Below are positions 3,666 through 51,848 of a stretch of 64,000 nt of DNA, piece by piece; position 1 is the first letter of the stretch; each line of letters starts with the position of its first letter. A model generated the notes under the pieces. It searched no databases. It had not been told where the DNA came from and worked only from the letters and a program-made list of their open reading frames with translations. Source of the stretch: Candidatus Wolfebacteria bacterium GW2011_GWE2_44_13 (GTDB lineage Bacteria; Patescibacteriota; Minisyncoccia; UBA6257; UBA9933). The DNA is taken from positions 69,310 through 133,309 of the forward strand of contig LCHW01000002.1 in the NCBI GenBank assembly GCA_001000675.1, written 5' to 3'. The position numbers were made by a program, and so were the translations under genes.

Positions 3666-4031
3666 TCAATGATTGGTCTTGCAGATAGTGCGCATGAGTG
3701 TGGTTGTAATAAGCTGGTAGTCGAGTAACCACCACCCGCCTCCAGCTAATCCGCCAAAGAGGATGTCGCCAGAGAAATAGCCGACAGTGATGCCAATAGC
3801 AACGTCTCCAACAAAGAGGAGGAGGAAGTCAAAATGGATACAAAGAAAGAGATGCTTAAAGAACAGGAGTGAGATCTTCTTATTATGGCGATAAGCCTCA
3901 AAAAGGCAGAGGGCAAAACGAACGCCAAGAATAATAAGAGCGACGGCACAGATCCACTGAAAGATATGGAAATGTAATGCGATTGCGGAGCCAGTAAGGC
4001 TTGCCGCACATACAGCCAGAAATAGCTTCAC
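3666..4031 (-). CDS. Hypothetical polytopic small membrane protein.
   Basis: 121 aa with 3-4 hydrophobic segments. A hairpin terminator sits at 3628..3660 on the minus strand. Confidence 0.4.
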   Translation of the reverse strand: MKLFLAVCAASLTGSAIALHFHIFQWICAVALIILGVRFALCLFEAYRHNKKISLLFFKHLFLCIHFDFLLLFVGDVAIGITVGYFSGDILFGGLAGGGWWLLDYQLITTTLMRTICKTNH

Positions 4032-4736: not shown

Positions 4737-6065
4737 ATGGAAAAACTTTTTAAATGGGGGAGAAAAATAATACCAAAATCAATTTTTGAGTTTTTTCAGC
4801 CGGCGTATCATTTTCTCTTGGCGTTTGCAGGCGCAGCGCTGTATTGGTTTCCATCGCGAAAAATGACAGTCATTGGAGTAACAGGAACAAAAGGCAAAAC
4901 AACAGCATGTAATATGATTGCGCATGTCTTGCAGGAAGCAGGACATAAAACAGGGATGACAACCACCGTCAATTTCCGCATCGGCGAAAAGGTGTGGACG
5001 AATGAAGCAAAGCAAACCATGCTCGGGAGATTCCAACTACAGAAAATGCTGCGACGCATGGTAGAGGCAGGATGCGAATATGCGGTAGTGGAAACATCTT
5101 CAGAAGGTATCATGCAATTTAGGCATACGTTTGTTGATTATGACATTGCCGTGTTTCTAAATCTTTCACCTGAGCATTTAGATCGACACAAAGGGTTTGA
5201 AAATTATCGCGCAGCGAAGATGAAGCTGTTTAAAAAAATTGCAAATAAGGGGACGGGTATCGGAATATTTAACCTGGACGATGAACATGTCGAGCACTTC
5301 ATAGGGATTTCACAAGCTGCACAGTATGGATATACCGTATCGCATAAAAAAGCGCATGACGCAGATGCAGTACGACGCATTGTAGAATTAAAAAATATAC
5401 AACTAAGCGGAGCAGGGTCTGAATTTGACGTGAATGATGAGCATTTCATACTGCCACTCGTTGGGGCATTTAATGTGCAAAATGCAGGTGCTGTCATTTG
5501 TGTGGCGCTTTCACAACACATTGCCCTAGACCAAGTGCGAAAAAGTCTGGCAACATTTAAGGGTGTTTCAGGGCGCATGGAAATTGTGCCGAACGATAAG
5601 GGGTTCGCCGTAGTTGTGGATTACGCACACGAACCAAAGAGTCTTGAAGCGGTATATAAGGCAGCCACGGATTGTGATTTGAAACAGGCGGGCGGGAGAT
5701 TGATTGGCGTATTTGGGGCAACGGGTGGTGGGCGAGACAAATGGAAGCGTCCTGTTATGGGTGAGATAGCCGCATATTATTGCGACGAAATAATTCTTAC
5801 CAATGACGACCCATATGATGAAGATCAAAAAAGCATTATTGCCGATATTCGCGCAGGCATCGAACATGCGCCATTTATAAAAGGAAACATCCATGAAATT
5901 GTTGACCGACGGGAAGCTATTCGCACCGCGCTAAGCCTTGCGAAACCAGGAGATGCCATTGTGCTTACCGGCAAAGGAGGGGAGACAGTAATGGTTGTTG
6001 AAAATGAAAAACGAATTCCGTGGGATGAACGGAAGATTGTCGAAGAAGAGCTTGGAAGGTTGTAA
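4737..6065 (+). CDS. murE: Mur ligase family protein, most like UDP-N-acetylmuramoyl-tripeptide ligase MurE.
   Basis: GVTGTKGKTT P-loop, Mur ligase middle-domain motifs (DYDIAVFLNLSPEHLDRH) and C-terminal DYAHEP...TNDDPYDED. Confidence 0.75.
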   Translation: MEKLFKWGRKIIPKSIFEFFQPAYHFLLAFAGAALYWFPSRKMTVIGVTGTKGKTTACNMIAHVLQEAGHKTGMTTTVNFRIGEKVWTNEAKQTMLGRFQLQKMLRRMVEAGCEYAVVETSSEGIMQFRHTFVDYDIAVFLNLSPEHLDRHKGFENYRAAKMKLFKKIANKGTGIGIFNLDDEHVEHFIGISQAAQYGYTVSHKKAHDADAVRRIVELKNIQLSGAGSEFDVNDEHFILPLVGAFNVQNAGAVICVALSQHIALDQVRKSLATFKGVSGRMEIVPNDKGFAVVVDYAHEPKSLEAVYKAATDCDLKQAGGRLIGVFGATGGGRDKWKRPVMGEIAAYYCDEIILTNDDPYDEDQKSIIADIRAGIEHAPFIKGNIHEIVDRREAIRTALSLAKPGDAIVLTGKGGETVMVVENEKRIPWDERKIVEEELGRL

Positions 6066-8227: not shown

Positions 8228-10045
8228 ATGTCATTAGAAGAATTGGAAAAAAAATTATACGGAGTTGATAGAAAAGAAGAGTCAGGCGAGCGGCCAGTAG
8301 AGGCGCATGTACCAAAACAAGAAGCTACTGAGGTGCAAACAGGGTGGAATGCAGAAGCTGCCTCGGGGGAGATACAGCCAAAAGGAAAAGCAGTAAAAAT
8401 GACCGTGATTGGGGTCGTTTTGGCACTGCTCGTTATTGGAGGAGTTTCTTATTATTACATTTCAGAATTTTATAAAACAAAAGATTTGCTGTTTGAGGCG
8501 GAAACGGTGGAGAATATTCTTATCGCACGACCGTTCGATGTTACTGTGAATGTAGAAAATAGATCGAGAACAAGATTACGGGATGCAAAGATTTTTGTAA
8601 CACTGCCCGATGGTGTTATTTCTACCGACACGGCAATGAATCGACAAACAATCGAGGAGTCGGTGGGAGATTTAAATGCAGGAGAGATGATCGAGCGAAC
8701 GTACTCGGTTATCGTAGTGAAAGACGAACAGTCGACCAAAAAGATGGACGTCAATTTTTCCTATTTACCCGAGAATATCAATACGCGGTTTGAGCGCGAA
8801 GAAACATTGGAAGTGCGTGTGGGGCAACCAGCAATCACGCTCGATTTTACAACACCGCAAAATGTGTTCAGCACAGAAAACTTTGACATAGGAATGCGCT
8901 ATAGAAACATTTCTGATATTGATTTTAGAAACGTGCAGGTTCGCTTAATTGTTCCGCCAAAAGTTTCAATCAAGAGTGCCTCAGTAAAGGCAACGACTGG
9001 CGATGCAACGTGGAATGTCGACATACTAAAGCCACAAGAAGAGCGGGCAATCGCAGTAAAGGGTGCTTTTGAAGGAGCGAATCAAGAATTCTTTGAGTTG
9101 AAGAGCCAGGTTGTGGTGATGATAAATGGCCAAGAATATATCATAGGAGAAAAAACGGCAAACCTCGGCATCGCAGCATCTCCATTAAGTCTTGCAATCA
9201 CCGCAAACAATAGAACGGATTATGTAGCAAACCTCGGAGAAGCAATTACCTATACATTAACGTATCGCAATAATACGGATGTGGGGTTGAGTGACGTAAT
9301 TATAAAAGCAAAATTAAAGGGAGAGCTGTTTGATATGGTATCGGTGCGAAGTGAGGGGGGATTTGATTCGCGCACAAATACACTTACGTGGAACACTGCA
9401 GGGATTCCCGCATTGAAATTAATTGGTCCTGGTGTTGAGGGAAGTGTTGAATTTACAATACAAACAAAAAAGGTATTTCCGATCAAACGAATGTTTGATA
9501 AGAATTATGTATTGCAGGTAGCGGGTGAAATCAATTCACCAACTGTTCCGTATAATGTAGCAAGTGATAAGACGGTTGGTTTTGCTGACAGTGAAACGAA
9601 AGTAGCGGGTAACATTACTATTGATACGAAAATAGCGCTCGCTTCTGGATCGGCAGCACCACAAGTAAACAAGCCATCAAAATATTTGGTTACGTGGACG
9701 ATTAGAAACTACGCAACCGATATGCGCGATATAAAAATAAATAGTTCTTTGCAGCCAGGAATAGTGTGGACAGGGGTTGCGAAGGGAAGCAACGGGTCGG
9801 TACCAACATACAATGACCGAACAGGAGAAATAGCATGGGCAATCGAAAAGATTGTTGCAACAAAAGGTGTGATCGGTGCCCCTACTGAAGCAACCTTCCA
9901 AGTGGAGATAACACCTAATATTACGCAGATAGGAGGCTCAATAGAAGTTACAAAAGACGGCATAATGACGGCGGTGGATGATTTTACGGGTATGAGCGTG
10001 ACGCGACAAGTTAAAGGGTTGTTAGCGCCTGGCGCATCTCGATAA
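8228..10045 (+). CDS. Large membrane-anchored surface protein with repeated beta-sandwich (DUF11-like) domains.
   Basis: N-terminal TM helix (VIGVVLALLVIGGVSYYYI) followed by ~500 aa of repeated Thr/Asn/Val-rich segments. Confidence 0.5.
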   Translation: MSLEELEKKLYGVDRKEESGERPVEAHVPKQEATEVQTGWNAEAASGEIQPKGKAVKMTVIGVVLALLVIGGVSYYYISEFYKTKDLLFEAETVENILIARPFDVTVNVENRSRTRLRDAKIFVTLPDGVISTDTAMNRQTIEESVGDLNAGEMIERTYSVIVVKDEQSTKKMDVNFSYLPENINTRFEREETLEVRVGQPAITLDFTTPQNVFSTENFDIGMRYRNISDIDFRNVQVRLIVPPKVSIKSASVKATTGDATWNVDILKPQEERAIAVKGAFEGANQEFFELKSQVVVMINGQEYIIGEKTANLGIAASPLSLAITANNRTDYVANLGEAITYTLTYRNNTDVGLSDVIIKAKLKGELFDMVSVRSEGGFDSRTNTLTWNTAGIPALKLIGPGVEGSVEFTIQTKKVFPIKRMFDKNYVLQVAGEINSPTVPYNVASDKTVGFADSETKVAGNITIDTKIALASGSAAPQVNKPSKYLVTWTIRNYATDMRDIKINSSLQPGIVWTGVAKGSNGSVPTYNDRTGEIAWAIEKIVATKGVIGAPTEATFQVEITPNITQIGGSIEVTKDGIMTAVDDFTGMSVTRQVKGLLAPGASR

Positions 10046-10095: not shown

Positions 10096-11493
10096 ATGGA
10101 AAAGAAAGAAAACATGATTGATAAGATAGTTTCCTTGGCAAAGCGAAGGGGCTTTGTGTTCCCATCCTCTGAAATTTATGGAGGATTTGCCGCAATCTAT
10201 GACTACGGGCACTATGGCATCTTGTTAAAAAACAATATTCAGGCTGCATGGTGGAAGCATATGGTCCAGCTTCGTGACGATGTGCTTGGGCTTGATAGCG
10301 CCATATTTATGCATCCAACAACATGGGTTGCCTCAGGACATGTAGGCGGTTTTGATGATCCGCAAATCGATTGCCGTAAGTGCAAGAATCGTATGCGTGC
10401 AGACCACGTGTTGGAAGAGTTCGATATTAACGCTGATAAAGCGCCTATCGAATATATTAATGAACAGCTCGACATTCTTAAGGCAGCGGGTAAGGTAAAG
10501 TGTTCAAAGTGTGGCTCTACCGACCTAACGCCAGCAAAGCGTTTTTCATTGATGGTAAAATCGAATGTGGGTTCGCCAACCGATGCGTTGTCAGAAGACA
10601 ATGTTGTGTACTTGCGTCCAGAAACGTGTGGAGGTATTTATTTGGAATATAAAAATACCGTTGATTCATTGCATCCGAAATTGCCGTTTGGTATTGCGCA
10701 GGTAGGAAAGGCATTTCGTAATGAAATTGTTGCGCGACAGTTCATCTTCCGCACCCGTGAATTCGAGCAAATGGAAATGCAGTACTTCTTACACCCAAGC
10801 CAGATGGAAGAGAAATATGAAATGTGGCATCAGACACGGTGGAATTGGTACTTGAAATACGGGATACCAGAAGACAAATTAAAATGGCACAAGCATGATA
10901 AGCTTGCACACTATGCTTCACAGGCGTACGATATCGAATTTAATTTTCGATCACTCGGTGGTTTTAAGGAAGTAGAAGGTGTCCACGCACGAGGAGATTG
11001 GGATCTTTCACAGCACTCGAAGTTTTCTGGTGTAGCGTTGGATTATTACGATCAAGAAAAGAATGAGCGATTTACACCACACATCATGGAAACGTCGGTG
11101 GGGCTTAACCGGCTTGTGCTGATGTTCTTGGATAATGCATATACCGAAGAGGAGGTAGGCGAAGGAGATGTGCGCACCGTGCTTAAGCTCGACAAGCGTC
11201 TTGCGCCGGTAAAGATAGCTGTTTTTCCATTGTTAAAAAATAAGCCCGAGCTAATAGAAAAGGCGCGTGGCTTGTATGAAGCATTGCGCGAAGATTGGAT
11301 GACCGAGTTCGACGACAGCGGCAACATCGGAAAGCGATATCGCCGACAGGATGAAATAGGTACACCGTACTGTGTCACCGTAGACTTCGACACATTGGAA
11401 GACAATACGGTAACGGTGCGCGACCGCGACACCATGGAACAGAAGCGAATTAAAATAGAAGATTTGCAAACATTCTTTAAAGAAAATTTGTAA
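10096..11493 (+). CDS. glyQS: Glycine--tRNA ligase, homodimeric alpha2 type.
   Basis: Class II aaRS motifs (FRNEI..., TREFEQMEMQYF). Insertion domain with a CxxC...CxxC zinc motif. C-terminal anticodon-binding domain. Confidence 0.88.
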   Translation: MEKKENMIDKIVSLAKRRGFVFPSSEIYGGFAAIYDYGHYGILLKNNIQAAWWKHMVQLRDDVLGLDSAIFMHPTTWVASGHVGGFDDPQIDCRKCKNRMRADHVLEEFDINADKAPIEYINEQLDILKAAGKVKCSKCGSTDLTPAKRFSLMVKSNVGSPTDALSEDNVVYLRPETCGGIYLEYKNTVDSLHPKLPFGIAQVGKAFRNEIVARQFIFRTREFEQMEMQYFLHPSQMEEKYEMWHQTRWNWYLKYGIPEDKLKWHKHDKLAHYASQAYDIEFNFRSLGGFKEVEGVHARGDWDLSQHSKFSGVALDYYDQEKNERFTPHIMETSVGLNRLVLMFLDNAYTEEEVGEGDVRTVLKLDKRLAPVKIAVFPLLKNKPELIEKARGLYEALREDWMTEFDDSGNIGKRYRRQDEIGTPYCVTVDFDTLEDNTVTVRDRDTMEQKRIKIEDLQTFFKENL

Positions 11494-42394: not shown

Positions 42395-42520
42395 GGATAA
42401 TGATGTCTAGTGAATAAATGAGCCGTTAGGCCCGTATCTAGAGAATAATAGATAAATATGGGATAAAAGTCAATGGATAGAATAAAACAAAGCCCCGACG
42501 GAAGTCGGGGTAAAAAAGGG

Positions 42521-42868
42521 CTACAACGGGAGGCGCGAAGGGCCACGGCGCATAAAGGAGTCCTGCAAACAGTATGCGTACATGCAAATGCATGACACAA
42601 AGACGTAAAGGTTTCCAAACCTATGGAATCCGGGCGTTTCAGCAACAAACCACGCCTGCGCCGCGAAGAAAAGAGAAATCCACGCAACGAGAAGGAAATT
42701 TCCACCCGAATGGTGAATCGCATAGTAGCCTTCAGGAACTCGTTTACCCTGACGGTATCGAGAGTCGCAGAACCAAAGGCAACAAACAACTAAAGGGAAA
42801 AACCAGGTAAGAGCGTAGACGAATAGTAAAGCAAACAAATAGATGCTGCTAAGCGTAAGTTCGGACAT
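42521..42868 (-). CDS. Hypothetical small membrane protein.
   Basis: 115 aa with 3 hydrophobic segments. AAAGGGG RBS. Minus-strand hairpin terminator at 42483..42520. Confidence 0.45.
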   Translation of the reverse strand: MSELTLSSIYLFALLFVYALTWFFPLVVCCLWFCDSRYRQGKRVPEGYYAIHHSGGNFLLVAWISLFFAAQAWFVAETPGFHRFGNLYVFVSCICMYAYCLQDSFMRRGPSRLPL

Positions 42869-43037
42869 AGCGCAAACCCCTTTGTAAGATGTTTTTAGAA
42901 TAGTGAACTGGTAAAATAGTGCAATAAAAGAAGGGCTGTGTCAATGGATAGGGTTGACATATATAGCGGGAAAAGGTTATATGAACTCAGTAGCTTTAGT
43001 TGTATAAGAGATCCTCTAACCGAGAAGGAGTGTGAAT

Positions 43038-43439: not shown

Positions 43440-43510
43440 AGGTTTAAGTACTGGCCCGTCTTCGACGGGCCAGCTTTTTGTTTTACGGTTGCTATGATAG
43501 GATACAGGAA

Positions 43511-44515
43511 ATGAATGGCGACCCAGCACAATTGAAAAAAGGAGAGGCAGACCTGCAAATAGATTCAGTTCTTCGCCCAGAGCAATGGGATGAATATATC
43601 GGGCAGGAGCGTATTAAGGCAAACGTAAAAATAATGATCGAAGCGGCACAAAAGCGAGGGGAGCGACCAGATCACATGTTGTTTTATGGCCCACAAGGGT
43701 TGGGCAAAACAACAATTGCAAACTTAATCGCGCGAGAGATGGGCGCACAAATGCGCGTGACTTCGGGGGTAAATCTAGAAAAGACAGGGGATTTAGTATC
43801 GACACTCGCAAATTTAGAAGAGGGCGATATTTTATTTGTCGACGAGGCGCATCGCATCAATCGTACGATTGAGGAAATTTTGTATCCAGCCATGGAGAGC
43901 CGCAAGCTGCATATGACGATTGGTAAAGGACCGGCTGCGCGCCAACTTACACTTGACCTTCCGGCATTTACGCTTATTGCGGCAACAACGCGCGTAAACT
44001 TATTGTCCGCTCCGCTCCGCTCGCGATTCGGTGCAATATTTAGCATGGATTATTATGCGCAAGAACATATCGAAGAAATCATTCGACGCTCCGCCCGCAT
44101 TCTCGGATTAACAATAGAACCGGCTGCGGTAACGGCAATTGCACGTGCAGCGCGCTTTACGCCTCGGACAGCGAATAGGCTATTAAAACGCGTGCGTGAC
44201 TATGCACAAGTAAAAGAGATGGCTGTGATTACAGAAGAGGCGGTGCTTGATACGCTTGAGCTGCTTGAGATAGATGAGCTCGGTCTTGAAAAGTGGGATC
44301 GCAAGCTATTGGAGAGCATTATTAAAAAGTTTAATGGTGGTCCGGTTGGTTTAAATACACTCGTCGCAATACTCGGGGAGGACAAGGGTACGGTTGAAGA
44401 AGTGTATGAGCCGTTTCTTATTAAGATGGGGTTACTACAAAAGACATCGTCTGGCCGCGCGGTAACCGAAGAGGCATATGCGCATTTGAATTTGAAGCAG
44501 TTTAAGGTACAATAA
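43511..44515 (+). CDS. ruvB: Holliday junction branch-migration ATPase RuvB.
   Basis: LRPEQWDEYIGQE, Walker A GPQGLGKTT, Walker B LFVDEAHR, sensor motifs and a C-terminal winged helix. Confidence 0.9.
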   Translation: MNGDPAQLKKGEADLQIDSVLRPEQWDEYIGQERIKANVKIMIEAAQKRGERPDHMLFYGPQGLGKTTIANLIAREMGAQMRVTSGVNLEKTGDLVSTLANLEEGDILFVDEAHRINRTIEEILYPAMESRKLHMTIGKGPAARQLTLDLPAFTLIAATTRVNLLSAPLRSRFGAIFSMDYYAQEHIEEIIRRSARILGLTIEPAAVTAIARAARFTPRTANRLLKRVRDYAQVKEMAVITEEAVLDTLELLEIDELGLEKWDRKLLESIIKKFNGGPVGLNTLVAILGEDKGTVEEVYEPFLIKMGLLQKTSSGRAVTEEAYAHLNLKQFKVQ

Positions 44516-44561: not shown

Positions 44562-45305
44562 ATGTTCTATATTTTTAACACCTACCTCTATCAGCCGCTC
44601 TTCAACGCACTAATCTTCCTATATGATAAGTTTTCTTTTGGCGATCTCGGTATCGCTATTATCGTATTGACAGTGCTTGTGCGCATCGTGCTATACCCAT
44701 TTTTCTATAAAGGAGCACGCGATCAGGCAGTGATGCAAAAGATTGCACCAACCATAAAGGATCTACAAAAAAAGCATAAAGACGACAAGCAAAAGCAGGT
44801 TAACGAGATGATGGCATTGTATAAGGAACATAAAGTGAATCCATTTTCCGCCTTCTTCCTATTGCTTGTAGTGCAGCTACCGATTTTACTTGCGATGTAT
44901 AAGGTATTCACGACTGGGCTTAAGACGATGCCACAGGAATTGCTGTATTCATTTGTTCCCCATGTGGATGCATTGAATTTCTCATTCATCGGGCTTATCG
45001 ATTTATCAGAGAAGAACGTATTATTGATTCTTCTTACTGCAATAGCGCAATATTATCAGGCAAAGCTTACGATTCCGAAGAGTAACAAAGCGTTCAAGGA
45101 TCTTGAAATGGCAGAGATGATGGGGCGGCAGATGATGTACATGGGGCCAATATTGACGGTTGTGGTATTAATGACCATGCCATCAGCGATTGCGTTGTAC
45201 TGGCTTACGACAACCTTGTTTTCCGTCGGACAACAGGTCATAATCAATAAAAAGATTAACATCGTTAAAGATCATGGAAAACTTGTCGTTACCGGAGATA
45301 ATTAA
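44562..45305 (+). CDS. yidC: Membrane protein insertase YidC/Oxa1, short form.
   Basis: Five TM segments and a conserved charged residue in TM1 (GIAIIVLTVLVRIVLYPF). 247 aa. Confidence 0.8.
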   Translation: MFYIFNTYLYQPLFNALIFLYDKFSFGDLGIAIIVLTVLVRIVLYPFFYKGARDQAVMQKIAPTIKDLQKKHKDDKQKQVNEMMALYKEHKVNPFSAFFLLLVVQLPILLAMYKVFTTGLKTMPQELLYSFVPHVDALNFSFIGLIDLSEKNVLLILLTAIAQYYQAKLTIPKSNKAFKDLEMAEMMGRQMMYMGPILTVVVLMTMPSAIALYWLTTTLFSVGQQVIINKKINIVKDHGKLVVTGDN

Positions 45306-45708
45306 AGGGCTAATCGAAAAGATGGGATTTCGCGATTATTCGGTCAGCTATGACGAAGAAGCACGACGATTTAGTATCCTTATTGAAGATGCACAGTTTC
45401 TCGAGAAGAGCTTGGCAAATTTTATTGCCGACCTTAACTATCTTGTAAAGTTAGTTACAAAGAAGTATGACTGGGCTCCCATTACGATCGATGTAAATAA
45501 TTATAGAAAGAAGCGAGAAGAGCTTATCGTTGAATTGGCAAAAGCTGCAGCAAGAAAAGTAGCCGCAACACAACAAGAAATCGTACTGCCTTCAATGAAT
45601 GCGTACGAACGCCGATTGATTCACGCAGAGCTTGCAGAGCGCCCAGACCTTAAAACAGAAAGTAAGGGAGAAGGAAAAGAACGCGCAGTAGTTATAAAAC
45701 CGTTATAA
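45274..45708 (+). CDS. jag: Jag/KhpB RNA-binding protein (Jag-N plus R3H domains).
   Basis: A Jag_N-like N-terminus and an R3H-type C-terminus ...ERRLIHAELAE...GEGKERAVVIKPL. Typical yidC-jag pair. The start may be the downstream ATG at 45319. Confidence 0.7.
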   Translation: MENLSLPEIIKGLIEKMGFRDYSVSYDEEARRFSILIEDAQFLEKSLANFIADLNYLVKLVTKKYDWAPITIDVNNYRKKREELIVELAKAAARKVAATQQEIVLPSMNAYERRLIHAELAERPDLKTESKGEGKERAVVIKPL

Positions 45709-45770
45709 ACATTAAAATGCCCCTGTGGGCATTTTTGGTTTTACGTAATCTTTTACGATAGAATAATACT

Positions 45771-47318
45771 ATGGAACGGCTAACTAAAATAGAAAAACAA
45801 TTTTCAAAACAAGAGTCGGCGGCGGAGCGTGCTACTCTTGCAGAACAGGTTCAAGAAAAAAGGGCGGCTTATTTTGCCCAAAAACGGGAGCAGGAAATGC
45901 GCAATGAGCAAGTTGCAGAAGTGGTGAAAGATGTCGAAGGGCTGCAAAAAAAGATAGAGGCGCATCATGCGAGTGGATTTTTCGAAAAGATAAAGAACGT
46001 AATTGCAATCAAAAAAGTAGAAGCAGAGCTGCGGGAAAAGTCGGGAGAAAAGACGACGTTGGAAGAGGCACTTGCAAAGCCAATGCCAGGAGCGAAGGGA
46101 ATGGAAGAGGCGCGTGAAATGCTGTCTAGTTTTTATCAACAAGAAAAACAAAAATGGGCAGAAGCGCCCTATTCAAAAGAAGACATTGCGAGCCTGTTTA
46201 GCGAAGAGCATTTAGCAAGTCTTTCCTTGGAGGATTATGCGGCGTTGCTGCGACGATTCCCCGGTGAAATGGTGACGCATGTGACGCGCCAAGGAGTGCG
46301 CGATCATGTTGGAATGTACGAGCATATGGCAGGGATGGGAGAGATGCATAATGGATTTAAAGGCATTACACAATCAGGGAGACTTACGACGCGGTTGGGA
46401 GCGGCGATGATGGAAGCACGGACCGCGCATGATATTTGCGAAGCGCTTAATGGTGGAAAGCCTGTAGTAACGGGAAGGGACGTTATGGGCAAACATATGG
46501 TGGAGTCTACAAGTCCGCAAGTATTAGTGGCGCGATTGCGTGGGTACACCGATAGGGCAAAAGAGTTTCACGATTCGACCGCTATTCACCTGGCAATGGG
46601 GAAAGTGCTTGACGAGATTTATGGCGGCGAGCGTGGTAACGAAGTGTTCATTGCGTACCCGGCTGCACATGTTGCATCTCAATATAATTTCTTGAATATT
46701 CAAGGAAAAGGAGTAACAAAAGCGCCGGACGACGATCGGTATAACGATCTGTATGTATGGGCGGAAAATGAATGGAAGGGGATGAATATAGATGCGGGTA
46801 TTGTATTTTTACCCAGTGGTGTGCAGGTAGATAAAATATCCGGTTCGCAATTCGCGCTTGACGAACAAGGCATGCCAATCGAGCGAGAATTTGAAGAGGG
46901 AGAAGATACAGTGAATAGACGTGTATATAAGAGGTCAGAACAGATAGTGGACTCAAAAGAATATTGGGAGGCATATTTTGCAGAACATCCCAACAACCGT
47001 CCATCAAAGATTATATATTATGATGGGCGCATGACACCGACCGAGGCGCTTTGGGAATGGAAAGGAAAAAATGGAATTGTAGATAAGGCGCAAGCGGCAA
47101 CGCTTGGGTTTGATGAATATGAATTGCATGAATTTGATCGGCCAGGCGCCGAAGAAGCTGCATTGCATTTTTATCGAACTGCGGTTGATGCACTAGTAAG
47201 GGAGTATGGGATGGGTATTATGTTGCCGTGTTTTGATCACCAAGTATTTACGAAGCCACAAGATGAATGGCAAAATTCTATCAATGACATGTATAAAGAA
47301 GATGGGATGAAGTGGTAA
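45771..47318 (+). CDS. Hypothetical 515-aa protein, GC-rich. Apparently inserted between jag and its original terminator.
   Basis: Long ORF with distinct composition. A relic jag 3'-end copy lies immediately downstream. Confidence 0.5.
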   Translation: MERLTKIEKQFSKQESAAERATLAEQVQEKRAAYFAQKREQEMRNEQVAEVVKDVEGLQKKIEAHHASGFFEKIKNVIAIKKVEAELREKSGEKTTLEEALAKPMPGAKGMEEAREMLSSFYQQEKQKWAEAPYSKEDIASLFSEEHLASLSLEDYAALLRRFPGEMVTHVTRQGVRDHVGMYEHMAGMGEMHNGFKGITQSGRLTTRLGAAMMEARTAHDICEALNGGKPVVTGRDVMGKHMVESTSPQVLVARLRGYTDRAKEFHDSTAIHLAMGKVLDEIYGGERGNEVFIAYPAAHVASQYNFLNIQGKGVTKAPDDDRYNDLYVWAENEWKGMNIDAGIVFLPSGVQVDKISGSQFALDEQGMPIEREFEEGEDTVNRRVYKRSEQIVDSKEYWEAYFAEHPNNRPSKIIYYDGRMTPTEALWEWKGKNGIVDKAQAATLGFDEYELHEFDRPGAEEAALHFYRTAVDALVREYGMGIMLPCFDHQVFTKPQDEWQNSINDMYKEDGMKW

Positions 47319-47320
47319 TA

Positions 47321-47380
47321 ATGCAAAGCCAAAGGGGCGGAAGCGGGAAAGAACGAGCAGTTGTTATTAAGCCATTATAA
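47321..47380 (+). pseudogene. Relic duplicate of the jag 3' end (encodes MQSQRGGSGKERAVVIKPL*), followed by terminator 47380..47413.
   Basis: The 13 C-terminal codons translate identically to the jag C-terminus (GxGKERAVVIKPL*). DNA identity is roughly 75-80%. Confidence 0.6.
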
Positions 47381-47499
47381 AAAAAGAACCGCCTTTATGC
47401 GGTTCTTTTTTTATAAATACGCAAGAGATATTCGTAATGCGAGTAGATTTATTGTACAATAGCTTTATTAAAAGCATGGTAACAGTAACATATAAAAAT

Positions 47500-49629
47500 A
47501 TGAAGCGTATTAAATTTTTTTTACTAGCAGTTTTATTACTGGCAGCAACGGGACAATCCACGCAAGCTGCGACTACAGAGGAATTGCAAAATCAGCTTGC
47601 ACAATTAATGGCACAACTGAGTGCATTGCAAGCACAAGTATCGACACCAAGCCAAGGATATGTGTTTGAGAGAAATCTTAAAATAGGTATGCGTGGTACC
47701 GACGTGCAAAAGTTGCAAGAGTTTTTAGTGGAGCAAAAATATTTGAAATTAACTAATACAACAACGTATTTTGGTACACAGACGAAGGCGGCGCTTATCG
47801 CGTGGCAAAAAGCAAAAAATATTTCTCCAGCAATAGGATTTTTCGGGCCGCTTACTCGGGCAAAGATGAATGCGCTATTGGCTGCCGTAGTACCCGCTAC
47901 ACCATCATCCGCAATAATGACAGGCTCTTCTGTTGCAATTAAATTTGCGAGTACGGGGGTGCGAAGAGTAAATGTTTATTTGTGTGATTTGCAAAATAAT
48001 TGCAATACGGTTATCGCAGCAAATATCGCAGTGGTTTCAGGGGATAATACAGTTACGTGGGCAGTTCCTGCAAATATTGTTGCAGGAGCATATAAAATAA
48101 AGGTAGAAGATGTTGCGAATTCGAGTTGGGTAGTATACGCGGAAGTGCCTTTAGTTAAGCCAGTTGCGACTGCAACGTCGACTCCTCCTGCAACACAGCC
48201 GACGATAGTTGCTATCTCGTTACAAACGCCAGTAGCGACGAAAGCGGGAGCATCGCTTGCTATTAAATTTGCAAATAACAATGCAAAGAATGTGAGTATC
48301 TCGCTTTGCTCGGATAGCACGTATTGCGATGTAGTTGTTGCGTCGCGATACGCAGTTACCGATGGTGCTAATAGTGTTTCATGGACGATCCCAAGTGCCA
48401 CACTTGCGAGGGAATATTTCGTTAGAATAAAGGATGCTGATGATGTGAATAGTGCCGAATTTAATAGTGGTCGGTTTGCTATTACAGCAGCTACCACCGT
48501 CGTACCGCCAACATCGGCAACATTTTCAGTACAAACGCCCGTGGCAACGAAAGCTGGTGAAGTGCTCTCAGTCGTATTTACAAGCAGTAAAGCGCGAAAC
48601 GCAAGCGTATCATTGTGCGTAGATGCGCAGAATTGTAGCATAGTGCTTGCGCCAAGAGTCTCCGTCGCATTCGGCACAAATAACTTTAAGTGGACGATTC
48701 CAAGTACCACTCCTGCGAAACAGTACTTTATAAAGATAAAAGATGCCGACAATGTAAATGATCCTATTGGGGCAAGTGGGTTGTTTTCAATTACGTTATC
48801 AGGAGCGCCAACTTCAACAACGCCCATTGCAACAACCTCTTCAATAATTGAGGTGGATACACCCCTTGCTGCCTATGTTGGTAGCCCACTTAACATAAAC
48901 TTTACGAGTGCAAATATACGAAATGTGAGTATTGTACTATGTTCCAATAGTGCGACGTGCGCCATAACAGCAGCTTCAAACTTTGCAGTGGTTGTTGACG
49001 GCTTCAATACATATGCATGGGCAGTTCCAACGACAACAAGTGTAGGTCAGTATTTTATAAAAATGAAAGATGTTAATAGTGCGAGTGGCGAAGAGTTTTT
49101 GAGCGATGTCTTTACGATAGGGGCTGCCATACCAGTACCATCAATTACAATAACACAGCCAGCGAATGTAGTTGTAGAAGGAACGTTGATTGTGAAGTTT
49201 ACTACAAGCAATATTGGTAGTGTGGATGTGTACCTTTGTCCAAGTAAGACCCAGTGCGGGAATGCAATAGAAAATGGGCTTCCTACTACGGATGGGGTTA
49301 ATACATTTAAATGGGTAGTCCCAACATCAACAACCCCAGGGGCATATTATATAAAAGTGGCTAAAGCAGGAAGTGTAACTGCGTATACGTTAACAGCAAA
49401 CACATTTTCAATTGTGGCAGCTCCAGTGGCACGCGTATGTCGTGATGTGAGTGGACTAAGTGAATTATATACAGTGTGTGACGAATCAGAGGAAGCAGTT
49501 TCGGGGCGGTGCGTTCTTTCAAAGGCCCCGTATAGAAGCTTCCCTGGAATTCCTACAATATATGAGAATGGAATGGGTATTATTTGTGGCCAATCGGTGG
49601 TATGGGTCGAGCTTCGATGTTGTAAATAA
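47500..49629 (+). CDS. Secreted/anchored surface protein: signal anchor, coiled coil, peptidoglycan-binding-like domain, six ~95-aa Cys-pair Ig-like tandem repeats and a Cys-rich C-terminal module.
   Basis: MKRIKFFLLAVLLLAATGQSTQA signal, a PG_binding_1-like segment (LKIGMRGTDVQKLQEFLVEQKYL) and six repeats of the form ...V.IKF....ARNVSV.LC.D...C..V.A....V..G.N...W.VP.....Y..KV.D. Start set at ATG 47500. Confidence 0.6.
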   Translation: MKRIKFFLLAVLLLAATGQSTQAATTEELQNQLAQLMAQLSALQAQVSTPSQGYVFERNLKIGMRGTDVQKLQEFLVEQKYLKLTNTTTYFGTQTKAALIAWQKAKNISPAIGFFGPLTRAKMNALLAAVVPATPSSAIMTGSSVAIKFASTGVRRVNVYLCDLQNNCNTVIAANIAVVSGDNTVTWAVPANIVAGAYKIKVEDVANSSWVVYAEVPLVKPVATATSTPPATQPTIVAISLQTPVATKAGASLAIKFANNNAKNVSISLCSDSTYCDVVVASRYAVTDGANSVSWTIPSATLAREYFVRIKDADDVNSAEFNSGRFAITAATTVVPPTSATFSVQTPVATKAGEVLSVVFTSSKARNASVSLCVDAQNCSIVLAPRVSVAFGTNNFKWTIPSTTPAKQYFIKIKDADNVNDPIGASGLFSITLSGAPTSTTPIATTSSIIEVDTPLAAYVGSPLNINFTSANIRNVSIVLCSNSATCAITAASNFAVVVDGFNTYAWAVPTTTSVGQYFIKMKDVNSASGEEFLSDVFTIGAAIPVPSITITQPANVVVEGTLIVKFTTSNIGSVDVYLCPSKTQCGNAIENGLPTTDGVNTFKWVVPTSTTPGAYYIKVAKAGSVTAYTLTANTFSIVAAPVARVCRDVSGLSELYTVCDESEEAVSGRCVLSKAPYRSFPGIPTIYENGMGIICGQSVVWVELRCCK

Positions 49630-49697
49630 AATACATAAAAATCCGTACGCCTTGGGCGTACGGATTTTTTGCGCTCGCTATCGAGCCGGTGCGCTTT

Positions 49698-51848
49698 TTA
49701 CAATTCTCCCCAATTGTCGCCAATTTCCAAATTCACCGTTAAGGGAACGTTAAGTGTATAGATAGATTCCATAATATCTTTAATTTCCGTAACAGTAGCT
49801 AGTAATCGATCGGTATCTTTAATTTCAAAAACAAGTTCATCGTGAATAGTAAGCAGCATCTTCACATCCGTACCCCAGATGCCCTTGCTAGAAAAATGTT
49901 CCTTAACTTTTACCATAGCAGATTTTATGATATCCGCGGCAACGCTTTGAATAGGAAAATTGATTGCCATACGCTCAGCCTCAGACTGAAGCATTTTATT
50001 GAACGACATAATTTCAGGAAGTGGGCGCATGCGTCCATTGATGTTTTCGACAAATCCTTGCGTGCGCACGGTCGCGAGTATCGTCTCTTGCCATTGCTTA
50101 ATAGTAGAAAAGTCTGAAAAGTATTCATCGATAAATAACTTTGCTTCCTTAGGGGTAAGGCCACTTTGTTGTGCGAGTGCACGAGCGCCCATACCGTAGA
50201 TCACGCCAAAGTTAAGTGTCTTGGCCACCTTGCGCATTACTGGAGTAACTTCTTCAAGGGAAACGTTATAAATTTTGCTCGCAGTGATTTGGTGAATATC
50301 CGCATTACTCTTGAATGCGCGTAACATTTCAGGATCTTCAGTAAGAGAAGCGAGAATGCGTAATTCGATTTGCGAGTAGTCGAGTGAAACAAGCTTATAG
50401 CCAGAGGAGGCGACGAATATTTCTCGTATCGATGGCGGAATATTTTGCAAGTTTGGATGCTCGCAGGTGATGCGTCCAGTTGCTGCCTTGAGCTGTACAA
50501 ATGTCGGATGAATGCGAGTATCTAATTCGCTCATGCGTTTGATCGGCTCAAGATACGTAGACTTTAATTTAAAAAGTTCACGATACTTAAGAATAAGATC
50601 AATAAATGGAACCGTAGAGCGAAATTGCTCAATTTTATCAATATTTGTCGACTTAATTTTAAGCTTGTACGTAGTCTTAAGTATTTCAAGAAGCTGCTTT
50701 GGAGAATTCGGATTAAAGACATGTCCTGCTTCTCGATACAACTCTTTCACAAGCGCATCAATATCGCGATCAAGAATAACTTCCTTTTCGGCAAGGCGCG
50801 TTCGATCGATCATGATGCCATATTGGTTCATTTCTTCGAGAATAGAAACGAGCGGGAGTTCAACATCATCGAGGAGTTGTTGCGAAAGGGTTGGCTGCGA
50901 AGTGAGAGAAAAAAGTTGCCCTTGGTTTTCTTGTGCTTTTTGTCGTGCAACACGAATTTCATTTTCCGCAGGAACGAGCCGTTTAAGAATACTCGTAAAG
51001 CCCATGTCTTTGAGGTAGGGGATAACGGTTTCAGTAGGAAACGCAGTGTAGGCAATTTCAGAAATAGATTGGATACCAATCGGTGCATCGCGACGAATAG
51101 TGGCGAGCGTTTTTGAAAGCAAGGCAATTTCTTCGTGTTCAATAAGCTTCTTATAGGAAAGCATCTTCTTTCCTGCGTCATCGGAAACCTTAATAGTCGC
51201 AAAAAAGTTTTCTAGTGAACCAAACTCTTGAATGATACCGCTTGCAGTCTTTGGGCCAACGCCGCGAACACCAGAAATATTGTCCGATGCATCGCCAACA
51301 AGGCCTTTGTAATCGGCTAGTTGCGAAGGAGAAATGCCATAACGAGCAACTACAGCAGTCTCGTCGTACGTAATCGTTTCAGAGATACCCTGTTTAAGTG
51401 TTTCAACAACTACTTTATTTCCTTCGACGAGTTGTAGTGCGTCAAGATCGCCCGTAAGAACAACAACCTGCACATCTTTTTCGCCTTTAAATTGTTCTGC
51501 GGCTGTGCCAATTAAATCATCACCTTCGAATCCAGGAATTTCGTAGGTCTTTACGCCGAAGACATCAAATAAGTGGTGCGCCTCGATAATTTGGGAAATA
51601 AGCTCGTCGGGAGCTTTCGGGCGATGTGCTTTATACTCCGCATACATTTCCTTGCGGAAGGTCGGCTCAGGGCGGTCAAAAAAAGCAACGGCATATTCAG
51701 GATGTTCTTCCTTGAATATCTTAATAAGAACGTTGGTTAGACCATAGAGCGCTCCACTTGGGCGTCCATCAGGAGTAGTTAAGTTCGGAATTGCATGAAA
51801 TGCGCGATGAATAAGTGCATTTGCATCAATAAGCAGAAGTTTCTTCAT
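49698..51848 (-). CDS. polA: DNA polymerase I, 5'-3' exonuclease plus polymerase domains. No 3'-5' exonuclease domain (716 aa).
   Basis: N-terminal 5'-nuclease motifs (LLLIDANALIHRAFHA...GFEGDDLIGT). C-terminal pol A motifs (DYSQIELRILA, motif B RRxAKxxNFGxxYG, HDE). Confidence 0.88.
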   Translation of the reverse strand: MKKLLLIDANALIHRAFHAIPNLTTPDGRPSGALYGLTNVLIKIFKEEHPEYAVAFFDRPEPTFRKEMYAEYKAHRPKAPDELISQIIEAHHLFDVFGVKTYEIPGFEGDDLIGTAAEQFKGEKDVQVVVLTGDLDALQLVEGNKVVVETLKQGISETITYDETAVVARYGISPSQLADYKGLVGDASDNISGVRGVGPKTASGIIQEFGSLENFFATIKVSDDAGKKMLSYKKLIEHEEIALLSKTLATIRRDAPIGIQSISEIAYTAFPTETVIPYLKDMGFTSILKRLVPAENEIRVARQKAQENQGQLFSLTSQPTLSQQLLDDVELPLVSILEEMNQYGIMIDRTRLAEKEVILDRDIDALVKELYREAGHVFNPNSPKQLLEILKTTYKLKIKSTNIDKIEQFRSTVPFIDLILKYRELFKLKSTYLEPIKRMSELDTRIHPTFVQLKAATGRITCEHPNLQNIPPSIREIFVASSGYKLVSLDYSQIELRILASLTEDPEMLRAFKSNADIHQITASKIYNVSLEEVTPVMRKVAKTLNFGVIYGMGARALAQQSGLTPKEAKLFIDEYFSDFSTIKQWQETILATVRTQGFVENINGRMRPLPEIMSFNKMLQSEAERMAINFPIQSVAADIIKSAMVKVKEHFSSKGIWGTDVKMLLTIHDELVFEIKDTDRLLATVTEIKDIMESIYTLNVPLTVNLEIGDNWGEL

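Follow-up and report, generated by a model that had tools for sequence, protein, structure and literature searches.

The window analysed here is the whole of a 64,000-nucleotide stretch of contig LCHW01000002.1 (assembly GCA_001000675.1, positions 69,310 to 133,309 of the forward strand) from Candidatus Wolfebacteria bacterium GW2011_GWE2_44_13; all positions given below are those of this window unless another locus is named, and related loci are referred to by L numbers. In the region of interest the genes ruvB, yidC and jag are followed by a hairpin, a gene for a protein of 515 amino acids (here termed gene X, and its product X), a relic of the 3' end of jag, a strong terminator, a gene encoding a PG_binding_1 protein and then, in convergent orientation, polA (Table 1). 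The finding with which we are concerned is the repetition of the jag terminus on the far side of gene X, a recombination scar which appears to record the joint at which this gene was inserted at the boundary of a housekeeping gene.

The last 13 codons and the stop of jag (45667-45708) recur shortly after gene X (47339-47380) with 33 of 42 nucleotides identical (79%), and at the peptide level 12 of the 13 residues and the stop agree (13 of the 14 codon positions). Over the last 36 nucleotides there are six differences, every one of them a synonymous third-position change; this pattern has a probability of about 0.06 if the changes were divided evenly between the two copies, and as evidence it is marginal. 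The last 11 codons of the relic are pristine and its 5' part is scrambled, the segment 47321-47338 bearing a weak resemblance to jag, with indels. No exact run common to the two copies is longer than nine nucleotides (GAAAGAACG), and the pair was not reported by a repeat finder, even at a seed of 8. An earlier reading of these letters (the original prediction) had drawn attention to a jag terminus repeated after the 515-aa gene, and both the coordinates and the peptides which it gave have stood up to formal alignment: the jag end and the spacer behind gene X align locally with a score of 44, compared with 16.9 ± 2.3 (maximum 25) for shuffled sequences.

The match is short (42 nt), which could be taken to favour a chance similarity or an artefact of assembly, but such an explanation is effectively refuted. 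The alignment lies about 12 standard deviations above the shuffles, and when the window and some 40 related loci, together roughly 0.5 Mb, were scanned in six frames for the Jag C-terminus plus stop (at least 7 of 11 residues), the only matches apart from the jag genes themselves were two relics behind gene X, that of the window and its orthologue in L001, a second X-bearing locus. The same DNA, with 0-1 differences, is present in eight independent assemblies (NCBI, JGI, ENA and Logan) made from different samples and with different pipelines, and as these are concordant misassembly is excluded. On the sequence evidence the repeated terminus is truly homologous to jag, a relic which goes with gene X and which, among the loci scanned, is found only in the two that carry that gene. 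The candidate roles of a translated small open reading frame (ORF) or of a read-through extension of X were considered for the relic and rejected, there being no start codon in L001 and the frame relative to X differing between the genomes; translation is not conserved because the L001 relic is in frame with X and the window relic is not.

As to its source, the relic is nearest to the window's own jag end (6/36 differences), a distance within the range of 4-11 positions at which the orthologous jag ends of the subclade differ from one another. Only in the closest Jag subclade do proteins end in exactly ...AVVIKPL*, and therefore the relic derives from the lineage of the window or from a near relative. 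The divergent donor locus invoked in the original prediction is thus possible, not required. Neither is gene X GC-rich, as had been supposed: at 45.8% it exceeds the window mean of 44.2% marginally, and its GC content at third codon positions (GC3) of 0.42 is within the range of its neighbours.

Both jag termini are followed by a terminator, and the duplicated unit is accordingly a jag end together with a terminator. The first (fold -14.5 kcal/mol, z = -3.0) has its counterpart in every relative, where a hairpin stands directly 3' of jag, and since jag thus keeps its own hairpin at 45714-45735 the proposal that gene X had arrived between jag and its terminator must be abandoned. The terminator behind the relic is indeed as strong as had been suspected (fold -22.4 kcal/mol, z = -8.4), with a stem at 47386-47392/47399-47405, and is the same element as inverted repeat I1, the perfect 18-nt arms of which lie at 47375-47392 and 47399-47416. 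There is no recognisable paralogy between the two terminators.

The regions downstream of jag in the relatives show what the site looks like when unoccupied. In the closest of these (L030, L031/32 and L033-36, with Jag 88-90% identical) the order is yidC, jag, hairpin, PG_binding_1 gene and polA, without gene X, and removal of 45709-47380 (1,672 nt) from the window yields exactly this empty-site layout. Because the closest relatives keep the same flanks without it, gene X is to be read as an insertion beside jag, and on this point the original prediction was correct; X is not universal at the site and, as already noted, the relic accompanies it in the window and in L001 alone.

L001 is a 1.9-kb Logan contig with an X 76% identical to that of the window, and the order of its parts is the same: jag end, hairpin, a spacer with the motif TAGAAT, X, relic and hairpin. 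Its relic, RKERVAVIEPL* with TGA as the stop, has four amino-acid-changing substitutions and differs at 9/36 nucleotides from the window relic, at 12-15 from any jag end and at 14/36 from the jag end of L001 itself. Both relics share states absent from every jag end, namely AGY (Ser) for GAR (Glu), together with CGA and ATT. Given these shared derived states and the greater proximity of the L001 relic to that of the window, the joint between X and relic probably arose once; it has diverged since, an 11-nt indel relative to L001 being found at 47319-47338. The insertion is neither recent nor private to the window genome, as the layout recurs in L001, where the relic has decayed.

The two X-bearing genomes are nevertheless not sisters at jag. 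When the last 71 residues of Jag are compared, L001 has two differences to L009 and three to L031, both without X at this site, as against five to the window; the nearest to the window over the same residues are L030 and L033 (four differences each), which also lack X. It follows that the block either is old and has been lost several times over or has spread laterally by way of the conserved flanks; repeated loss is plausible, since a clean empty site would be regained by recombination between the two copies of the jag end. The GC3 of X in L001 (277-1827) is 0.51 and that of its jag fragment (1-216) is 0.72, compared with 0.42 and 0.37 in the window; this mismatch hints that X may be foreign to L001 and a relatively recent arrival in that lineage. 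A transfer of X after the split of the hosts was also considered and rejected, as divergence at four-fold degenerate sites (63% in X and 73% in jag) did not differ significantly (P = 0.31), and the GC3 mismatch in L001 is the sole hint of it that is left.

Table 1. Features of the window between ruvB and polA, in order of position.
Feature	Position	Strand	Description
ruvB	43478-44515		upstream of yidC
yidC (247 aa)	44562..45305	+	Pfam 60KD_IMP, E = 2e-45; left flank, conserved upstream gene
jag (144 aa, R3H domain)	45274..45708	+	Pfam R3H, E = 8e-19; intact functional gene
Repeat copy 1	45667..45708	+	last 13 codons and stop of functional jag, GEGKERAVVIKPL*
Terminator 1	45714..45735	+	hairpin AAAATGCCC-CTGT-GGGCATTTT, directly after the jag stop; from terminator scan
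Promoter-like -10 box TAGAAT	45759..45764	+	6 nt before the X start codon; from alignment of the jag-X spacers of window and L001
Gene X (515 aa)	45771..47318	+	inserted cargo; coiled coil and globular alpha/beta domain
Relic of jag 3' end	47321..47380	+	19-codon ORF, non-coding; core 47339-47380 = GSGKERAVVIKPL*
Terminator 2	47386..47412	+	GAACCGC-CTTTAT-GCGGTTC and U-run, with A-tract flank
PG_binding_1 protein with Ig-like repeats (730 aa)	47437..49629	+	Pfam; right flank
polA, convergent	49698..51848	-	far conserved boundary of the variable jag-polA gap

The genes which frame the insertion are well conserved, yidC being 82-89% and polA 79-84% identical in the relatives. The jag gene lies directly downstream of yidC and overlaps its end; the R3H domain occupies residues 85-143, at the C-terminus of Jag (67.8 bits against a Pfam cut-off of 26.8), and of 427 homologues the closest are Wolfebacteria proteins with 84-90% identity, the nearest named ones likewise belonging to Candidatus Wolfebacteria. 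The PG_binding_1 gene, which stands behind the relic in the window, is the direct successor of jag in the relatives without X, and by tblastn it is 33-59% identical to the post-jag gene of L030, L031 and L033-36. The same range separates the PG-binding proteins of genomes whose Jag proteins are 88-90% identical. The nearest relative of the PG_binding_1 gene is in L033/L036 (50-59%) and that of jag is in L030, a discrepancy which suggests that exchange may be frequent at this spot.

Other genomes have filled the same gap differently. Unrelated genes for secreted or membrane proteins are found between jag and polA in L007, L008, L009 and L037, and in the more distant relatives L010-L016 jag directly adjoins polA. 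The gap between jag and polA is therefore a variable island and a hot spot, with X as one of several cargoes. The contents differ for each Wolfebacteria genome (window 45709-49697; L007-L009 and L030-L039) and include PG-binding/Ig-repeat proteins, a TPR protein and tandem membrane-protein paralogues. In L037 two cargo genes are tandem paralogues with near-identical 3' codons and terminators (9873-9922 and 10832-10881) and compensatory changes in the stems; they exemplify tandem duplication in situ within this island. In those Wolfebacteria relatives that are richer in GC, ruvB and other genes are flanked by a dispersed palindrome resembling repetitive extragenic palindromic (REP) sequences, TGTCATTCCCGCG(N)AGGCGGGAATC, with sites at 3865-3891 and 5165-5191 of L007, 3949-3981 and 5209-5238 of L008, and 5321-5345 and 7140-7164 of L038.

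Further upstream in the window, a segment of some 640 nt (42395-43030), bounded by rpmF (L32, on the minus strand) and an ORF of 135 aa, has a strong AT skew of up to 0.39, with no convincing ORF and, at E <= 1, no Rfam match beyond one to RsmY at the level of chance. The 64 kb as a whole (1-64000) contain no tRNA, tmRNA or Rfam family at the gathering threshold.

Gene X encodes a protein identical to ACD_81C00155G0004, from an uncultured aquifer bacterium. The original prediction had left its taxonomic distribution to be established, and 198 homologues were found (E <= 1e-3), all the named ones from Parcubacteria-type bacteria of the Candidate Phyla Radiation (CPR), with 160 relatives in JGI metagenomes; the lineages represented are Moran-, Niyogi-, Kaiser-, Falkow- and Jorgensenbacteria. 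At its N-terminus the protein has a long coiled coil, over about residues 1-131, and behind this a globular alpha/beta domain. Sequence and profile searches gave no match in Pfam, PHROG, NCBIfam or the PDB, and PADLOC gave weak matches only (E >= 0.002), to non-recombinase families and all within the coiled coil. The AlphaFold2 models are confident, with a mean predicted local distance difference test score of 87.8 for the full length and 92.8 for the globular domain, and Foldseek searches with them found no match in the PDB or BFVD; X may thus have a new fold, as judged from these models. Nine residues are invariant in the family (H170, R173, G175, R177, H273, Y284, G285, E287 and N290) and three more, D178, H179 and H185, are shared by 90% or more of its members, so that the conserved histidine, arginine, aspartate and glutamate residues suggest that X could be an enzyme.

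The genes around members of this family are not conserved, 242 neighbouring proteins falling into 191 clusters. A viral origin of X was considered and dropped, as viral contigs contained no relative of it. Two X homologues at 50% identity (L002 and L003) are not accompanied by a relic of their upstream genes. Those of L056 and L091 are bracketed by direct repeats of 40-57 nt; however, among 227 non-X genes used as a control repeats flank at the same rate of 3%, their sources being REP-like palindromes, the terminators of tandem paralogues and promoters, and the notion that target duplications generally border X cassettes was for this reason rejected. In a distant Parcubacteria contig (L079, 2428-5806) an X homologue lies directly after ruvB and near a gene for a 5'-3' exonuclease (polA-like), without yidC-jag; the general likeness of this neighbourhood to that of the window may be a coincidence.

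Gene X may bring its own promoter. The -10-like box TAGAAT is the sole motif of the spacer conserved between the window (45759-45773) and L001 (265-279), its end lying 6 nt ahead of the X start codon in each, and a promoter scan placed an overlapping site at 45740-45767 of the window. No Shine-Dalgarno sequence precedes the X start codon in either the window or L001, which together with the position of the putative promoter suggests that the X mRNA may be leaderless, or nearly so.

How the block came to lie where it does can be accounted for in several ways. We consider it fairly probable, from the arrangement of these sequences, that it entered by recombination anchored in homology to jag, with the jag terminus duplicated or displaced in the process. 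A self-contained transcription unit of about 1.67 kb, composed of terminator 1, the putative promoter and gene X, would have come to lie between jag and the PG-binding gene in some ancestor of the present Wolfebacteria-like lineage. This may have taken place through homology-facilitated illegitimate recombination (HFIR) with linear DNA carrying the 3' part of jag and then X, or else a circularised fragment bearing a short patch of the jag end may have integrated by a single crossover; by either route two jag termini would result, each with a terminator, of which the upstream one completes the functional gene whilst the downstream one is left as a non-coding scar. Displaced 3' gene ends in type VI secretion system (T6SS) and Rhs arrays have been attributed to HFIR (PMC5361080), and CPR bacteria can be naturally competent (PMC10633639). 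The insert has X as its only gene, with no integrase or transposase in searches of Pfam, PHROG and NCBIfam and by fold, and there are no terminal inverted repeats at the ends of the block, the duplication consisting of 42-60 nt of coding sequence. The route of recombination, the identity of the resident copy and the manner in which the block reached two non-sister lineages are what we infer here.

Several observations count against entry by recombination in jag. No breakpoint was found in yidC-jag, in which sliding identity against 10 relatives showed no shift and identity to L030 was flat at 0.76-0.81, with synonymous sites near saturation; no donor with jag-X and without the relic was found; comparisons of the terminators are ambiguous as to which pair of jag end and terminator is resident; and there are two X-bearing examples, one of them the short L001 contig. 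The two relics, moreover, differ at 25% of sites and the four-fold sites of X at 63% (101/160; Fisher P = 4e-5), which is not predicted for a neutral scar dating from the split of the X genes. Even so, the relic does not clearly exceed the non-coding DNA beside it (57-60% identical) in conservation. Its low divergence could mean that it is younger than that split, for example if it was refreshed as a homology arm in later exchanges, or alternatively that it is under constraint.

These points give some room to other explanations. The jag end and its terminator might have been tandemly duplicated in situ, by slippage or unequal crossing-over, and gene X placed between the copies later by an unrelated illegitimate event, with no foreign jag involved. 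The proximity of the relic to the window's own jag end agrees with this, as do the all-synonymous differences, which would fit drift confined to the functional copy, and the tandem paralogues of L037 in the same gap with their duplicated 3' ends and terminators. It is nevertheless unlikely, requiring two independent events at one spot, when no related jag-bearing locus among those scanned has a duplicated jag end without X and the two terminators are not recognisably paralogous. We regard with similar doubt, and find rather improbable, the suggestion that the relic has been maintained, whether as the right-hand homology arm for exchange of the X block or the PG region among Wolfebacteria, its 3' part being refreshed, or as a selected part of the X 3' untranslated region. 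The contrast between the pristine and the scrambled part of the window relic, the nine differences in 36 between the relics against 101 in 160 at the four-fold sites of X, the separate positions of the X-bearing genomes and the different nearest relatives of the PG gene and jag all speak for it; set against these are a sample of two, the four amino-acid changes of the L001 relic and its standing as the sequence farthest from its own jag end, as neutral decay predicts, conservation no better to a significant degree than in the flanking spacers, and an RNA structure associated with the relic which is not conserved, L001 having z = 0.1. In its most explicit and equally doubtful form, the X block would be a cassette mobilised by recombination, with the relic kept as short right-hand homology by which the block, or the hypervariable DNA beside it, passes from one Wolfebacteria genome to another, and its 3' half rewritten from the jag of the recipient at each transfer. 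Were this true it would explain the pristine codons of the window, the low divergence of the relics against the four-fold sites and the finding of X in lineages that are not sisters. In a bolder version X itself would promote the event.

Far less credible is a site-specific mobile element of the integrase or transposon type, with X as the element or a part of it and the jag ends as attL and attR or as a long target-site duplication. The lack of conserved neighbours in the X family and the direct repeats around the L056 and L091 loci could be cited on its behalf. However, the control genes have such repeats just as often, integrase and transposase domains are absent, as are terminal inverted repeats and any exact core longer than the nine nucleotides, relatives in viral contigs are lacking, and the homologues at 50% identity have no relic of the genes upstream of them; taken together these make an element of this kind very unlikely.

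Recombination anchored in jag is hence the explanation which we prefer, and the insertion marked by a relic of the jag end, as first proposed, is right in outline: it is an ordinary scar of a known kind in a new instance. Current views are not overturned by it, and its value is as an anchor for studies of recombination-driven gene flow in uncultivated lineages. It offers a clean and datable example of the entry of a single gene into the very small and poorly syntenic genomes of CPR bacteria, in which an insertion at the boundary of a housekeeping gene, the empty site in relatives and a scar recording the joint are all to be seen. The jag-polA gap is moreover revealed as a hot spot whose cargo, mostly secreted or membrane proteins, differs between Wolfebacteria lineages, and X itself is brought to notice, a member of a widespread CPR family whose structure is predicted with confidence and which has no known relatives.

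The arrangement resembles the orphan 3' ends which HFIR is proposed to have left in the T6SS effector-immunity arrays of Vibrio cholerae and in Rhs and contact-dependent inhibition loci (PMC5361080). In these too the homology anchor is a conserved gene upstream, new DNA is placed downstream of it, the old 3' end is displaced and survives as a non-functional fragment, and relatives have a simpler, unoccupied arrangement. The window departs from them in that the anchor is the housekeeping gene jag, not a polymorphic toxin, with 14-19 codons duplicated, and in that the cargo is one gene instead of an effector-immunity pair, with one scar instead of an array; the mechanism, furthermore, is one which we infer. 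Campbell-type integration of circular DNA by a single crossover likewise leaves the insert bracketed by direct repeats of the homologous patch, one copy of which completes the target gene, and the empty site is regained when excision takes place between them; the window, in contrast, has no circular form and no plasmid or phage functions, and its repeat is of about 42-60 nt at 79% identity. The islands inserted by tyrosine integrases at the 3' ends of tRNA or protein genes, bounded by attL and attR, share with it the duplication of a gene end around an insert which leaves the gene intact, whereas the insert beside jag comprises a single cargo gene, without an integrase, an exact core repeat, or phage or conjugation genes.

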